Positions 4,133 to 20,577 of a DNA stretch of 64,000 bases are shown one piece after another. The stretch's first letter is position 1. Each line of letters begins with the position of its first letter. The notes under the pieces were generated by a model. The model saw only the letters and a list, made by a program, of their open reading frames with translations. It was not told the origin of the DNA and did no database searches. The position numbers and the translations under genes are program-made. The stretch spans positions 1,207 through 65,206 of the forward strand of contig JAWKUK010000026.1 in assembly GCA_041398605.1 (NCBI GenBank), in the 5' to 3' direction. The DNA is from Planctomycetota bacterium (GTDB lineage: Bacteria > Planctomycetota > UBA1135 > GCA-002686595).

Positions 4133-4927
4133 TCAGCGGCCCCGGAGGCGCTTCACGAGCCGCTCCGCGCGCCAGCGCGGGTATTGCAGCCAGCCGCGCA
4201 GGGCGCGGCGGCCCGGCGTCCACGCGCGCCACTCCAGCGACGGCGCGCGGTCGCGCGTCACGCACAGGTAAGGCGGGTCGAGGGCCGGGTCGAAGTCGCG
4301 CTGGCGCATGTACTCCAGCACGTACGCCCAGCGCGCCGCGTCCGTCGTGTTCGGGTCCGTCTTGTGCAACAAGAGCGACGAGAAGCACACCACGTCGCCC
4401 GGCTGCGCGGCCACGAAGACCGGCGCTTCGACCTCGCCGGTGTAGCGATAGTGGGTGCCCTCGCGGATGTGCGCCAGCCGGCCACGCAGGTGCGAGCCCG
4501 GCGCGAACCACACGCCGCCGTTCTCCGGCGTCATCGCCGAGAGCGCGACCCAGACCTGGAAGTGCTCGTCCTTCAGCGAGTTGTAGGCGTTGTCCTGGTG
4601 CCACGGGAACTCCGGCGCGCCCGGGCCCTTCGCCACACACTGGTCCCAGCGCAGCCACACGTCATCGTCCGCGAGCGCTGTCACGAGGTCCGTCAGCTCG
4701 CGGCGCGCGACGAGCGCGTGCAGCGCCGGGCTGTGGCGGAAGCAGTTCGAATAGAACTCCATCGCGCCGCGCGTCAGCGGGCTCGCCGCCGGCAGCCGCC
4801 GGCCCGCGTCCACGATCGCCGCGATGGCCGCGCGCACCTCCTCGGCCGACAACACGCCGGGCAGCACGACGAAGCCACGCGCGCGGAACTCCGCCACCCG
4901 CGCGGCGAGCGCGCCCGCGTCGCTCAC
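4133..4927 (-). CDS. phytanoyl-CoA dioxygenase (PhyH) family Fe(II)/2-oxoglutarate oxygenase
   Basis: Motifs FPWHQDNAY (HxD) and LLLHKTDPN. GTG start at 4927 overlaps the TGA of the upstream amidase gene (GTGA). The rest of the 689-aa track ORF is off-frame read-through. Confidence 0.8.
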   Translation of the reverse strand: MSDAGALAARVAEFRARGFVVLPGVLSAEEVRAAIAAIVDAGRRLPAASPLTRGAMEFYSNCFRHSPALHALVARRELTDLVTALADDDVWLRWDQCVAKGPGAPEFPWHQDNAYNSLKDEHFQVWVALSAMTPENGGVWFAPGSHLRGRLAHIREGTHYRYTGEVEAPVFVAAQPGDVVCFSSLLLHKTDPNTTDAARWAYVLEYMRQRDFDPALDPPYLCVTRDRAPSLEWRAWTPGRRALRGWLQYPRWRAERLVKRLRGR

Positions 4928-6033
4928 GGCAGCACGGTGAAGCGCAGGCCCTCGGACAGCCCGACCGGCGCCGCGGGCAAGAGGCCCGGGTCGCGGTACC
5001 ACCACTGCGTGTAGACCGTCGAGCCCGGGAAGAGCCCGCGGTTGACCAGGAAGCCCGACGTGATCGGGAGCTCGAGCCGCCCCGAGCACGCAACGTTCGG
5101 CAGGCCGTTCGAGAAGGCCACCTGCGTGCGCTGCGGCGCGTTCCCGAGGCACAACGTGCCGCCGAAGAACGGGATGTTCGCCGGCTGGTCCGACCACAGG
5201 AGGAGCCCGAACTGCTGCGTCAGGACCTGGTCGCAATACACGACGAAGTCGCTGGCCGCGAACGAGGGCGTGCCCGTGAACCCGATGGCCGGCGTGCAGC
5301 CCGCGGAGCTCGTCTTCGGCGAGCAGTACACGAGGGGCGCGTTCGCCTGCGGCAAGTACGGCGCGAGCCCGAAGTGCCGTTGGAGCGCAAAGAGGTGCGC
5401 CTCCGCCGACGCCTGCCAAGTCGCCGGGCTCGCGAGCACCGACGCGTCGATCGGGCTCGTCAAGAACCCGCCCTCGCTCAGCGACGCCGGCATCGTCGTC
5501 TCGCGCAAGACGTAGAAGTTCGCGGTCTTCGAGCCGCGGTCCGCGAGGCCCAGGCCGAGCAGCAGCTCCTCTTGCACCCGGTCGCGCAGGTCGGCGCTGA
5601 TCGTGCCCGCGGCGTAGCTGAAGGTCTCGGTCCCGTTCGCCGCCGAGCTGGAGAACGCGTTGTGGTGGATCGACACGAAGCGGTCCGCGGGCCACGTGTT
5701 CGCCAGCGTCACGCGGTCCGCGAGGGACACCGTGACGTCCGTCGTGCGCGTCAAGCGCACGTCCCACTCGCCGCCGCCCAGCGGGTCGGCCGTGTCGAGG
5801 TCGAGCAGGTCGCGCAGGCGCAGCGCGACCTCGAGGTTCAGCACCTTCTCGGTCAGCCCGTTCGCGACCGCGCCCGGGTCCGTGCCGCCGTGGCCCGGGT
5901 CGATCACGACGCGATAGGGGCTCCCCGGCCGCGGCGTGGCAGGGGTCGGTTCGAGCGTGCTGAACGCCGCGAGCGCTGCGATGCCGAGCACCGCAGCCGG
6001 CCCCGCGCCGCGCTGGATCATGGAGCGTTGCAT
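4924..6033 (-). CDS. N-acetylmuramoyl-L-alanine amidase (Amidase_3) with extra C-terminal QxWYRD domain
   Basis: Signal peptide. Motifs VVIDPGHGGTDPGA, FVSIHHNA, NGTETF and ANFYVLRETTMPASLSEGGFL are classic AmiA/B/C-type. The final ~140 aa (YCSPK...GCTP...LCLG...TQWWYRDP...) are unrelated to amidases. Confidence 0.85.
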   Translation of the reverse strand: MQRSMIQRGAGPAAVLGIAALAAFSTLEPTPATPRPGSPYRVVIDPGHGGTDPGAVANGLTEKVLNLEVALRLRDLLDLDTADPLGGGEWDVRLTRTTDVTVSLADRVTLANTWPADRFVSIHHNAFSSSAANGTETFSYAAGTISADLRDRVQEELLLGLGLADRGSKTANFYVLRETTMPASLSEGGFLTSPIDASVLASPATWQASAEAHLFALQRHFGLAPYLPQANAPLVYCSPKTSSAGCTPAIGFTGTPSFAASDFVVYCDQVLTQQFGLLLWSDQPANIPFFGGTLCLGNAPQRTQVAFSNGLPNVACSGRLELPITSGFLVNRGLFPGSTVYTQWWYRDPGLLPAAPVGLSEGLRFTVLP

Positions 6034-12548: not shown

Positions 12549-16454
<3,906 letters not shown>

Positions 16455-16687: not shown

Positions 16688-18451
16688 ATGCAGATCCTTC
16701 GTTCCGCAGCCACGACGTTTGTCGCCGCGCTCGCCCTGCCGCTCCTCGCTGGAGAGGCCTCCGCGCAGACCCGTTACCTCTTCTCGATCGATTGGCAAGG
16801 CGCCACCGTCGGTATGCCGTCGGTCAGCGGCGCGCCGATCACCGAGGGCGACATCCTCGCGCCGAGCACCGGCACCTCGATGCCTGCGCTCGCCGCGCCG
16901 GCGCCGCCGATGATCGCGATCCCGCACGGGCTGGGCGGCCTCGGCCTGGCGACGGGCTGCGCCGGTCACGCGGGCGGCACCCCGTGCAACATCGAGGTCG
17001 ACGCGCTGTCCCGCGGCATCGACTTCCGCTTCCAGCCGAACGTGCCGATCCGTCCTGGTCAGATCCTGTTCTCGGTCGACGAGTACGCGGTCGGGCTGCC
17101 GGCCGGCCCGATGCCGAACGTCGTCAGCGAAGCGCCCTTCGGCGACGGCGCTGCGGACAGCTTCGTCAACCTGGGCCTGATGCCGCCGGCGCCCCTCTCG
17201 CCGATGTTCGGCCGCCACGTCGGCGTGCAGGACGGCGACGGCTTCGCCTCGGGGTCGGGTTACACCTACCCGGGCGTCGGCATCCGCGAGCCGATCGTCG
17301 CGGCGCCGGGCCCGTTCAACGGCGGCGACAACATCGACGCGCTCGACGCCGTCGAGCCGGTCGCTGGAACCACGTTCATCGGGACGTTCTTCAGCCTCGA
17401 CTCGAGCTTCCCCGACTTCATGGACCTCGTGCCGAACACGGGCTCGGCCATCGCGCACGGCTTTGTCGGCGGTGACGTGCTCGTCGCGACGTCCGCCGGG
17501 ACGATGGTCTACGCGCCGGCGACGATGCTCGGCCTCGACCTCATCGGCGGGCCGGACTCCGACGACCTCGACGCGCTGATCCTCGCCGAGACGGGCGCGC
17601 CGGGCTACCAGCCCTCGTTCCAGCCCTACGATTGGATGTCGCCGAACGCGGACATGCTGATCTTCTCGGTGCGCCGCGGCTCGGCCGTCATCGGGATGCC
17701 CGACAGCATGTTCGGCCTGCCGATCCAAGAGGGTGACCTCCTGATCCCGCCGATCCCGACCGCGCTCGGCGGGGTCTCGCCCTTCCCCGCGATCTTCATC
17801 GCCGCGGAGAACCTCGGCCTCTCGACGCTGCGCTTTGCCGGCACCGCCGACGACCTCTGCGCCGCGGACGCCTTGCACCGGCACCTCTTCGACTGCGACG
17901 GGGACGGCGTCGAGGACGCGATCGGCATCGCCGCCTTCGGGGTCGCGGACACGAACATGGACGGGGTGCCGGACTCCTGTGTCTCGGGCCCGGTCGGCAC
18001 GCCGTACTGCTTCTGCACCGCCGCCGCCTCGCCCTGTGGGAACGCGTACGCCCTCGGCGGGTGCCTCAACGCGACCGGCACCGGCGCGGTCCTCTCGGGC
18101 TCGGGTTCGACGAGCGTCGGCGCGGACAACCTCGTGTTGACGACGACGGGGATGAACCCCGGCGGCTTTGCCCTGAGCTTCATGAGCGTCGGGATGGTCG
18201 GTCCGCTGCCGGTCCAGAACGGTCTGCTCTGCGCTGGTCCGAGCATCTGGCGCCTCGGCCTCTACCCGACTGGTCCCGGGACGGCGAGCTTTGGGCCGGG
18301 CCTCGTCGCTCTGACCGCGGGCAACCCGCCGGCTGGCCAGATCACGGCCTTCGCCACCTGGAACTTCCAGACCTGGTACCGCGACCTCGGCGGCCCCTGC
18401 GGCGGCGCCTCGAACTTCTCGAACGCGCTCACGGTGACCTTCGTGCCCTGA
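16688..18451 (+). CDS. secreted protein of unrecognised family, tandem paralog 1 (FSxDWQG/ITEGDIL modules + acidic DxDGxGVxD/NxDGVPDxC motif + C-terminal QxWYRD domain)
   Basis: Start at ATG 16688 with signal peptide MQILRSAATTFVAALALPLLAGEASAQ. Composition is strongly coding-like. It is collinear with the next gene over its whole length. Confidence 0.8.
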   Translation: MQILRSAATTFVAALALPLLAGEASAQTRYLFSIDWQGATVGMPSVSGAPITEGDILAPSTGTSMPALAAPAPPMIAIPHGLGGLGLATGCAGHAGGTPCNIEVDALSRGIDFRFQPNVPIRPGQILFSVDEYAVGLPAGPMPNVVSEAPFGDGAADSFVNLGLMPPAPLSPMFGRHVGVQDGDGFASGSGYTYPGVGIREPIVAAPGPFNGGDNIDALDAVEPVAGTTFIGTFFSLDSSFPDFMDLVPNTGSAIAHGFVGGDVLVATSAGTMVYAPATMLGLDLIGGPDSDDLDALILAETGAPGYQPSFQPYDWMSPNADMLIFSVRRGSAVIGMPDSMFGLPIQEGDLLIPPIPTALGGVSPFPAIFIAAENLGLSTLRFAGTADDLCAADALHRHLFDCDGDGVEDAIGIAAFGVADTNMDGVPDSCVSGPVGTPYCFCTAAASPCGNAYALGGCLNATGTGAVLSGSGSTSVGADNLVLTTTGMNPGGFALSFMSVGMVGPLPVQNGLLCAGPSIWRLGLYPTGPGTASFGPGLVALTAGNPPAGQITAFATWNFQTWYRDLGGPCGGASNFSNALTVTFVP

Positions 18452-18783: not shown

Positions 18784-20577
18784 ATGCACCGAGCCACCCG
18801 ATCGCGACTCTCGTGCGGCCTGCAAGCCGCCCGCTTCGCTCTCCCTGCCGCGCTGCTCGCGACGCAAGCGAGCGCCCAAGTGCCGACCGAAGTGACGTTC
18901 TCCGTCGACTGGCAAGGACCGTTGATGGGCGTGCAGTCCAGCACCGGCCTGCCGATCACCGAGGCCGACCTGCTGAGCCCGGGTGGCGCGATCTTCAACT
19001 CCGGGACGCCGGGCATCCGCATCCCGGGCGCGTTCCTCTCGCGCTACTCGACCTGTGTCGGCCACGCCCCTGGTGTGTCGTGCGGCGTCGAGCTCGACGC
19101 GCTGTCGTTCGGCAGGGACGCGCGTCTGCGTCCGACGGCCGCGTATCAGTTCGACCTGCTCTTCTCTGTCGACGAGCACGCGGTCGGCGCGCAGGGGCCG
19201 TTCGCGCCCAACGTCGCGACCGAGGCCGCCGCAAACGAGGCGGCGGGCGACGTCTTCATGCGGCGGTTCACCGGCGCGGGTCCGTTCCAGCCCGGCGCAG
19301 GCTTCAACTTCGCGGTCATCGACGGCGACGGACAGCGCAGCACCTCCGGCGCGCTGTATCCGGGGCTCGGGCTCAAGGAGCCGATCCCCGCGACGCCGAC
19401 CGTCCCAGAGCTCGGGGACAACCTCGACGCGTTCGACATCGGGCCGCCGCCGACGGTCGGAACGCGGACGTTCTTCTCGCTCGAGGGTGGCCTGCCCGAC
19501 CCGCGCGAGCCCAACGTCGCGATCACGAACTCGGCCGGCTTGCAGCCGGATCCGAACGGCACGTTGTCGTTCAACGGCGCAGACGTCTTGGTGATCGACA
19601 ACGCCGGCGTCGTGTTCTTGTACGCCTCCTCGGATCAGCTCGGCCTGTCGGGCAACGGCTTCGACGACATCGACGCGCTGATGGTCGTCGAGAACGGCGT
19701 CGCGGGGTATCAGCCCTCCCTCGTGCCGTATGACTGGATCCAAGGCGCTGGCGGCGGCCCGCGCGACCTCGTGCTCTTCTCGGTGCGCCGCGGCTCGGCG
19801 ATCATCGGCATGCTCGACAGCCAGTTCGGGATCCCGATCACGGAGGGTGACATCCTCGGGCCGCCGCTCGGCGGCACGATCGGGCAGCGCCCTTCGATCT
19901 TCATCGCGGCGGAGTCGCTGGGCCTGCAGACGAGCCGCGGCCAGTTCTTCGAGGCCGGCGACGACCTCGACGCGCTCGACATGCGCGATGACACCGAGGA
20001 GCCGTTCAAGGACTGCAACGAGAACGGCGTCGAGGACGGCCTCGAGGTGTCGAGTGGGAGCTCGCCCGACATCGACGGCAACGGCGTGCCCGACGAGTGC
20101 GAGTCGGCAGGCGAGGCGTTCTGCGACTGCGACACCGCGGCGGAGGCGGCGTGTGGGAACATCTCCGTGACGGGCCGTGGGTGCGTCAACAACACGGGGG
20201 TCGGCGCGCGCCTGATCGGCACGGGGACGAGCTCGGTCGCGACGGACGCGCTGAAGCTGACCGCCTCTTCGATGACCCCGAACACCTTCGGCGTCGTGTT
20301 CATGGGGATGACGGCGGGGTCGGCTGTGCCGCCGTTCAGCAACGGCCGCGTGTGCGTCGGCGGCTCGACCCGGATCAAGATCGCGCCGACAGGCCCGACG
20401 GGCTCCTTCGACTACGGCCCTGGCATCCTCGCGGATATCTCGCTCTTGCCTTTGCCGCCTGTGGTCACGCCTGGCTCGACGTGGGGCTTCCAGGTTTGGT
20501 ACCGAGACATCGGCGGCCCGTGCATCGGCGGCGTCTCGAACTTCACCAACGCGTGGCGCGTGCTGTACACGCCTTGA
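18784..20577 (+). CDS. secreted protein of unrecognised family, tandem paralog 2
   Basis: Signal peptide ends ...LLATQASAQ. It shares with paralog 1 the motifs FSVDWQG, PITEADLL, FSVDEHAVG, GDNLDAFD, DDIDALM, PYDW, LFSVRRGSAIIGMLDSQFGIPITEGDILGPP, IFIAAESLGL, DCNENGVEDG..DIDGNGVPDEC and FQVWYRDIGGPC..SNF. Confidence 0.8.
   Translation: MHRATRSRLSCGLQAARFALPAALLATQASAQVPTEVTFSVDWQGPLMGVQSSTGLPITEADLLSPGGAIFNSGTPGIRIPGAFLSRYSTCVGHAPGVSCGVELDALSFGRDARLRPTAAYQFDLLFSVDEHAVGAQGPFAPNVATEAAANEAAGDVFMRRFTGAGPFQPGAGFNFAVIDGDGQRSTSGALYPGLGLKEPIPATPTVPELGDNLDAFDIGPPPTVGTRTFFSLEGGLPDPREPNVAITNSAGLQPDPNGTLSFNGADVLVIDNAGVVFLYASSDQLGLSGNGFDDIDALMVVENGVAGYQPSLVPYDWIQGAGGGPRDLVLFSVRRGSAIIGMLDSQFGIPITEGDILGPPLGGTIGQRPSIFIAAESLGLQTSRGQFFEAGDDLDALDMRDDTEEPFKDCNENGVEDGLEVSSGSSPDIDGNGVPDECESAGEAFCDCDTAAEAACGNISVTGRGCVNNTGVGARLIGTGTSSVATDALKLTASSMTPNTFGVVFMGMTAGSAVPPFSNGRVCVGGSTRIKIAPTGPTGSFDYGPGILADISLLPLPPVVTPGSTWGFQVWYRDIGGPCIGGVSNFTNAWRVLYTP

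Follow-up and report, generated by a model that had tools for sequence, protein, structure and literature searches.

Do three secreted proteins that end in the same cysteine-rich pattern share a single domain, and if so, what would such a domain do for the proteins that carry it? The question is raised by a 64,000-nucleotide stretch of the genome of a Planctomycetota bacterium (contig JAWKUK010000026.1 of assembly GCA_041398605.1; the whole stretch is referred to as the window), in which an N-acetylmuramoyl-L-alanine amidase and two paralogous proteins all finish in a similar series of motifs that includes QxWYRD. The original prediction, made from the window sequence, proposed that this pattern is a common domain resembling a sorting or anchoring signal. 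The analysis reported here shows that the domain is real and that the three window copies are members of a very large family. It is probably an address tag in the broad sense, i.e., a module recognised by one common partner after its protein has been exported by the Sec pathway, and is called the tag domain below.

In a three-way alignment of the window copies the columns C6, G23, G61, C64, G66, Q112, the block W114-Y115-R116-D117 and the final P are invariant, and the coordinates given in the original prediction were correct. Pairwise comparisons are weak. BLASTP aligned the amidase tail with that of paralog 2 over 106 residues (E = 0.003), and with that of paralog 1 over just the last 27 residues (E = 0.18). 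The two paralogs count as one independent case because they are 43% identical over their full length, and so the window provides two independent cases. The whole assembly (6.99 Mb in 60 contigs, 70.6% G+C; a metagenome-assembled genome, MAG, that is 88% complete) was searched as a six-frame translation, using a profile hidden Markov model (HMM) iterated from the paralog 2 copy; frames were taken from stop to stop, with start codons guessed. The iterated HMM converged on 352 open frames, each carrying exactly one copy, with no tandem copies, and the same HMM found nothing at E ≤ 10 in 64,127 reversed frames. Scores across the genome have a median of 156 bits, placing the three window copies (72.8, 86.3 and 112.6 bits) in the lower part of the range, and their contig carries no others. 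A diverse profile built from 75 copies was run against 1.84 billion cluster representatives and matched 20,451 proteins at E ≤ 0.001, of which 3,798 were at E ≤ 1e-30. The domain is real because of these profile scores, the empty reversed frames and the database matches, and the predicted pattern has survived both proper alignment and HMM scoring.

The pattern also has no counterpart among catalogued domains, as 110 copies scanned singly against Pfam and NCBIfam at E ≤ 1 gave only scattered noise. A profile search of PDB sequences with the domain found no match, so there is no solved relative by sequence. The profile is 136 positions long. Its N-terminal Cys is nearly invariant, and the other conserved features are an N-S-T-G motif (N 92%, G 92%), G20 (98%), an L-P motif (P 92%), G-G-S-Q-G-x-L-C-L-G-G (G 97%, C64 98%), R71 (95%), G107 (96%), W-x-F-Q-x-W-[YHF]-R-D (Q 93%, W 91%, R 99%, D 96%) and S-N-F-[TS] (N 92%). 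The consensus ends with a last strand, ...[LV]x[VI]TF, followed by one or two polar residues, and there is no hydrophobic or membrane helix. A disulfide between the two nearly invariant cysteines is likely, given their conservation in proteins with export signals. AlphaFold2 models of the amidase copy (predicted local distance difference test, pLDDT, 94.9; predicted TM-score, pTM, 0.88) and of a core copy (pLDDT 97.9, pTM 0.92) are both all-beta, and the domain is confidently predicted to fold as a beta-sandwich of about 136 residues. Foldseek searches of the PDB with either model gave no match at E ≤ 0.001, and the best TM-scores were 0.33–0.45. The weak neighbours are generic immunoglobulin-like domains, adhesin repeat domains and sandwiches similar to lytic polysaccharide monooxygenases (LPMO-like), and the best 50 matches of either model include no C-terminal domain (CTD) of the type IX secretion system (T9SS).

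Two conserved N-x-[ST] motifs lie at profile positions 8–10 and 127–129 (within CLNATG and SNFSNA in paralog 1). About 82% of copies have the sequon-like N-S-[TS], and about 96% have N-[FL]-[ST], in which S and T alternate. A role as an N-glycosylation tag is unsupported, since STT3/PglB is missing from this genome, as it is from 19 of the 21 that were tested.

The position of the domain within its proteins is close to fixed. Its end lies within 15 residues of the stop codon in 331 of the 352 frames and within five in 314. Among the 299 C-terminal copies with a complete profile end, the last conserved Phe is followed by one residue in 226 cases, by two in 69, and by some other number in the remaining four. 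All 97 copies examined at 80 loci in other genomes are C-terminal, as are nearly all of the best 150 of the 20,451 database matches. The original claim of an invariable location at the extreme C-terminus therefore describes the great majority of copies but is too strict, as about 15 of the 352 are N-terminal or internal (see below). A signal-peptide-like start, typically ending in A-x-A-Q, was recognised by a crude rule in 250 of the 352 tagged frames. By a rough count, tagged frames make up about 8% of the 4,353 coding-like frames of at least 100 residues. The signal-peptide heuristic, by which 1,444 of the 4,353 frames were positive, is too crude to give their share of the whole secretome.

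The proteins to which the domain is attached are diverse. Their cargo parts form 105 BLAST clusters, with sizes of 70, 28, 24, 13, 9 and smaller, including 62 singletons, so that the combination of a signal peptide with unrelated cargo, first seen in the window, holds genome-wide. Most of the large clusters have no Pfam match, and the rest consist of beta-helix proteins and of propellers of the FG-GAP or Kelch type. When 116 cargo regions were sampled, they matched 55 Pfam families, among them Laminin_G_3 (LamG), CBM96, C-type and legume lectins, FG-GAP, Kelch, NIDO, GSDH, the M14, M43 and S8 peptidases, sulfatase and endonuclease I. Such a range is what one would normally expect of a surface and secreted proteome. 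Since some of the cargo is itself a lectin or a carbohydrate-binding module, one more substrate binder is an unlikely role for the tag. For 93 of the 105 cargo clusters there is no tag-less paralog in the genome, the main exception being the sulfatases, with about 4 tagged and about 64 untagged homologs. The median identity between tags is 37% (and up to 80%) across unrelated cargo compared with 43% within one cargo cluster, and the nearest relative of a tag sits on unrelated cargo in 209 of 305 cases, against about 284 expected by chance. Tag relationships thus follow cargo only weakly, which suggests a module that has been shuffled between proteins under one common constraint.

The occurrence of one copy per protein, the near-fixed C-terminal end and the hundreds of unrelated exported cargos together point to a module that is probably read by one partner after Sec export. 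The same conclusion is favoured by the many cargos that are lectins or adhesin-like, by cargo families that occur only in tagged form, and by the apparent exchange of the module between cargos. In the mechanism we propose, tagged proteins would be exported through Sec by an ordinary signal peptide, and the domain of about 136 residues would fold into its beta-sandwich in the periplasm, probably locked by the disulfide. A single shared envelope partner, the existence of which we infer, would then recognise the folded domain and take the cargo across or onto the outer membrane, presumably for secretion or surface display. That the tag acts in this way, as a signal comparable to the T9SS CTD, is a narrower proposal, and one to which we give somewhat less than an even chance. 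The strict terminal geometry and the large share of the proteome speak for a signal; a docking module is the better fit to the copies that lie at the N-terminus or inside proteins and to the genomes with few copies.

Several observations weigh against an address tag that acts as an outer membrane signal. The copies that are N-terminal or internal (about 4%) are not artefacts. They occur in four layouts, of which at least one is kept in another genome: signal peptide–domain–FGE-sulfatase, in a tandem group of about seven genes; signal peptide–domain–FG-GAP repeats; signal peptide–domain–PSCyt1-like, which recurs in an unrelated database protein; and cargo–domain–FG-GAP repeats, in three paralogs. 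C-terminal secretion signals are not known to have such layouts, and these copies speak against a signal that is strictly C-terminal and cleaved. The domain favours an end of the mature protein without needing the C-terminus. Relatives with few copies (one to eight) carry the domain on single hydrolases, an arrangement that a plain binding module fits too. Neither a partner nor a co-distributed sortase-like or secretion component was found. SprA (TIGR04189) scored below its cut-off in all 13 genomes of the family and order that were searched, the 14 controls including no T9SS-bearing positive control. Exosortase (PF09721) has no match in this genome, and secretins number 5–11 in tag-rich and 5–7 in tag-poor genomes.

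The signal peptide–tag–FGE-sulfatase genes lie at C7:57889-72842 (also C30:51767-53599 and C4:82218-83198, numbered by contig), and several of them are truncated or frameshifted.

The machinery candidates were each set aside for their own reasons. For T9SS, both SprA and the Por_Secre_tail domain are absent, the HMM of the latter giving no match in the six frames of the genome. Exosortase was considered as a system that the tag might have replaced, but it occurs in 3 of the 11 tag-rich genomes and in 6 of the other 10, a distribution only weakly complementary to that of the tag. The genome has eight secretin-domain genes that are possible outer-membrane routes (e.g., C3:245892-246389, C26:93858-94391 and C26:104754-105287, outside the window); as a correlate of the tag, secretin copy number shows no trend, with 5–11 everywhere. 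The co-distributed sortase-like or secretion gene that the original prediction suggested seeking was accordingly not found, with SprA and exosortase absent here and secretins failing to track copy number. The sole large family of neighbours consists of about 60 paralogous fusion proteins resembling extracytoplasmic function (ECF) sigma factors, encoded within 4 kb of tagged genes (e.g., C9:18949-21699, + strand). They combine sigma-70 regions 2 and 4 with a membrane segment and a long beta-rich extracytoplasmic part. These proteins look like regulators and were rejected as machinery; their location suggests that a dedicated regulator accompanies many of the tagged genes. The survey of genes near tagged genes revealed no repeated receptor-like protein and no candidate for a cohesin-like scaffold.

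The closest known counterpart of the proposed signal is the type A CTD of T9SS (TIGR04183/PF18962). Like the tag domain, it is a single beta-sandwich at the extreme C-terminus of Sec-exported proteins, it is found on tens to hundreds of unrelated cargos per genome in a confined set of lineages, and its cargo classes are similar (peptidases, glycan-active enzymes and adhesin-like beta-propellers). It differs in sequence, with no HMM match at E ≤ 1 to the three window proteins or the 110 copies. Type A CTDs are about 70–100 residues long; the tag domain, at about 136 residues, exceeds them in size, and it contains two conserved cysteines. The non-C-terminal copies and the absence of SprA are further differences. 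PEP-CTERM/exosortase, MYXO-CTERM and LPXTG signals are also lineage-expanded C-terminal tags on many signal-peptide proteins, but they are short motif–helix–basic-tail signals that are cut by membrane enzymes, whereas the tag is a folded domain that ends in a beta-strand, has no hydrophobic helix and occurs in a genome without exosortase. The resemblance to sorting or anchoring tags noted originally holds for placement, and the copy number too is that of such a tag; in structure, a folded 136-residue beta-sandwich without a membrane helix is unlike the short MYXO-CTERM and PEP-CTERM tags.

A rival of some weight, although on balance doubtful, is that the domain is a non-covalent retention or docking module, which would bind an envelope polymer (peptidoglycan, a surface glycan or lipopolysaccharide) or a scaffold protein, with export left to a general route. 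By analogy with known modules this would account for a domain that works at either end and internally, for the conservation of the approximately 15 non-C-terminal copies, for the few-copy relatives that carry it on single hydrolases, and for an autonomous, confidently predicted beta-sandwich. Dockerins, which occur as one module per protein, mostly at the C-terminus and on up to about 200 cargos per genome, dock to one surface partner. The tag resembles them in occurring once per protein, usually although not invariably at the C-terminus, and on tens to hundreds of cargos; it differs in being all-beta in the models and without a match to PF00404, the dockerin being a calcium-binding, duplicated helix–loop module of about 70 residues. 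SLH, LysM, SPOR, AMIN, PG_binding_1 and choline-binding (CW_binding) domains are likewise non-catalytic modules found at either end of amidases and surface proteins, but none matches the tag at E ≤ 1, nor does any other known binding-module family. Wall-binding modules are also usually tandem and variable in position, while the tag is always single, has a tail almost fixed at one or two residues, and reaches a far higher copy number. The lack of a repeated receptor-like protein among the neighbours surveyed also counts against docking.

The window amidase bears directly on this rival. In it the peptidoglycan amidase domain precedes a non-catalytic C-terminal module, which is how wall-targeted hydrolases are classically built, and the fusion has been retained in about 23 protein clusters, down to 56% identity within the domain. 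The gene is the sole Amidase_3 gene of the genome, and any Amidase_3 is present in just 4 of 17 genomes of the family; for this reason the amidase is an accessory enzyme and provides no argument for a periplasmic, wall-bound role. The idea of a housekeeping periplasmic enzyme, and hence of a periplasmic tag, fails on the same count. The amidase possibly acts on the walls of other cells.

It is improbable that the domain is a ligand-binding module of the lectin, carbohydrate-binding or adhesin type, directed at external substrates, surfaces or prey cells and without a sorting role. A beta-sandwich of typical binding-module size would suit such a function, as would attachment to S8, M14 and M43 peptidases, a sulfatase, an esterase and the amidase, and the weak structural neighbours are adhesin repeat and immunoglobulin-like domains. 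Against it, the domain matches no carbohydrate-binding family by sequence or structure, several cargos are already lectins or carbohydrate-binding modules, and many of the approximately 350 tagged proteins (about 8% of coding-like frames of at least 100 residues) are not enzymes. A strict single copy and a fixed C-terminal end are also unexpected for substrate binders. Even less probable is a structural, folding or oligomerisation cap, without targeting or binding function, that has spread by duplication of 3′ gene ends. The tight tail length could reflect a domain, stop codon and terminator moving as a cassette, but conservation over unrelated cargo and about 20 planctomycete families points to a shared, selected interaction, the non-C-terminal copies are conserved too, and there is no resemblance to the trimerising jelly-roll folds of C1q and TNF. 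Finally, a chance or compositional resemblance in a 70% G+C genome, which the weak pairwise BLASTP values (E = 0.003 and 0.18) might have allowed, has practically no likelihood and is refuted by profile scores of 73–113 bits, 352 matches against none in reversed frames, 20,451 matches in the public database, and two structure models with pLDDT of about 95 or more.

The distribution of the domain was followed through other genomes. The source genome is that of a Saltatorellus-clade planctomycete, and its G+C content of about 70% agrees with published values for this clade (PMC11032199). A scan of public genomes with an 8-sequence core alignment found core-type carriers among planctomycete MAGs and in the cultured Saltatorellus ferox Poly30 (NZ_CP036434). 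Most genera of the GTDB family to which the source genome belongs have 131 copies or more and a few have 0–4, while other families of the same order have 0–8 copies of this Saltatorellus-type domain. Across the phylum it was present in 24 of 301 sampled genomes and abundant in one family. The proteins that finish in the domain in low-copy genomes are an S8 peptidase, metalloproteases, and esterase-like, Kelch and beta-helix proteins (one of each). The planctomycete tag was also seen, at 64–65% identity, on public MAG contigs labelled Paracoccaceae (L061) and Klebsiella (L071), which are probably mis-binned.

Beyond the GTDB family, the largest cargo family has a single homolog, from a second family of the order (51% identity), and this protein ends in a distantly related C-terminal domain of similar size in the same place. 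The domain of this homolog matches, at 95.7% probability by hhalign, a set of weakly similar planctomycete C-terminal domains (alignment A6), referred to here as type 2. The type-2 and Saltatorellus-type profiles match one another over 119 columns (hhalign probability 97.5%, E = 5.5e-12), a link that is partly circular, as all A6 members except the first were picked through weak matches to the Saltatorellus-type profile. The first member, identified by way of its cargo, has no match to the Saltatorellus-type alignment (A5) when taken alone. The type-2 HMM detects 62 of the 352 genome copies and seven further C-terminal copies, and none in the reversed frames. The two types are alike in C-terminal position, size and cargo logic, and one cargo family bears either type, depending on the genome. 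They differ in their motifs, type 2 having G-x-G-C...L-G-N...G-G-T-L-L...Q-A...D and lacking the N-S-T-G and F-Q-x-W-Y-R-D signatures of the Saltatorellus type.

Between 12 and at least 150 type-2 copies were found in 20 of 23 genomes, including those poor in the Saltatorellus type, and across the phylum the type-2 profile matched 59 of the 301 sampled genomes, from about 20 families. An expansion confined to one family is therefore true of the Saltatorellus subtype only, since genomes of the same family that are poor in it carry 12–44 type-2 matches. From these profile comparisons the window domain is best placed as a lineage-specific branch of a larger planctomycete C-terminal domain family. 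A wider proposal, which we regard as unlikely though worth stating, is that the domain and this family would be the cargo signal of an undescribed pathway that moves folded, Sec-exported proteins across or onto the outer membrane in about one-fifth of Planctomycetota genomes, as a counterpart of T9SS assembled from unrelated parts.

The genes and domain copies of the window are listed in Table 1. The amidase is a full-length match to PF01520 (Amidase_3), aligned over profile positions 1–172 of 174 with E = 2.1e-46 and a score of 158.6 bits, where the cut-off is 27; its motifs DPGHGG, E62, HHN and SEGGF are the putative zinc-site and catalytic positions of the family. The approximately 140 residues that follow the catalytic part have no match in Pfam or NCBIfam. 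The last 140 codons of the gene (4927-5346) contain the domain envelope, and this copy is a divergent subtype that has three additional cysteines besides the conserved pair, five in all.

Table 1. Tagged genes of the window and their domains (window positions; HMM, the genome-derived tag profile of 136 positions).
Feature	Position	Strand	Basis
Secreted N-acetylmuramoyl-L-alanine amidase with C-terminal domain, 369 aa	4924..6033	-	Open reading frame; signal-peptide-like N-terminus
Amidase_3 catalytic domain, residues 42-217	5383..5910	-	Pfam
Amidase C-terminal tag domain, residues 235-367	4933..5331	-	HMM 72.8 bits, E=8e-20, profile positions 2-135
Paralog 1, secreted, 588 aa	16685..18451	+	Open reading frame; signal-peptide-like N-terminus
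Paralog 1 C-terminal tag domain	18047..18442	+	HMM 86.3 bits, E=6e-24, profile positions 5-136
Paralog 2, secreted, 597 aa	18784..20577	+	Open reading frame; signal-peptide-like N-terminus
Paralog 2 C-terminal tag domain	20167..20568	+	HMM 112.6 bits, E=4e-32, profile positions 3-135

In four wastewater metatranscriptomes there are contigs that together match the amidase gene from 4840 to 6017 with at least 99% identity and bridge the junction of the catalytic domain and the tag. None of them reaches upstream of 6025, and for this reason the coverage fits a transcript rather than contaminating DNA, i.e., transcription of the amidase gene in situ. A gene on the minus strand, from 4133 to about 4900, is phytanoyl-CoA dioxygenase-like by eye (motif WHQDNAYN) and starts near the amidase stop codon. 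One metatranscriptome contig extends across 4600-4954, and the two genes may be co-transcribed.

Paralog 1 consists of an unrecognised head domain, acidic DG-rich loops, a Cys-rich lead-in and the C-terminal tag domain; the heads of both paralogs have no match in Pfam or NCBIfam. The short Cys-rich lead-in precedes the tag in both proteins (17999-18046, YCFCTAAASPCGN..., and 20116-20166, FCDCDTAAEAACGN..., + strand) and is missing from most genome copies of the domain. Directly upstream of the pair is a gene of 1,301 residues (12549-16454, + strand) whose product is kinase-like in its N-terminal part, has a membrane segment and continues into a long C-terminal part rich in repeats.

No publication on the domain was found among papers on Saltatorellus or by a full-text search on planctomycete sorting domains. 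C-terminal tags on secreted proteins are well known as a kind; what is new is this domain family, and possibly its pathway, which are undescribed. We are aware of no published pathway that carries folded proteins of planctomycetes to the cell surface or beyond it. In the genome studied here a single unannotated domain marks about 350 exported proteins, and its relatives mark at least 100 proteins in many planctomycete genomes. The domain merits a family entry, as it is now carried as 'hypothetical protein' in tens of thousands of database records, and a cultured, fully sequenced carrier exists in Saltatorellus ferox Poly30. According to PMC11032199, members of the Saltatorellus clade change shape and fuse, and their envelope proteins are for this reason of special interest. 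If the domain is an address tag, it would define the surface and secreted proteome of these bacteria and provide a handle for finding the machinery, and if that machinery is an undescribed pathway, it would handle roughly 7–8% of all proteins in the Saltatorellus clade.

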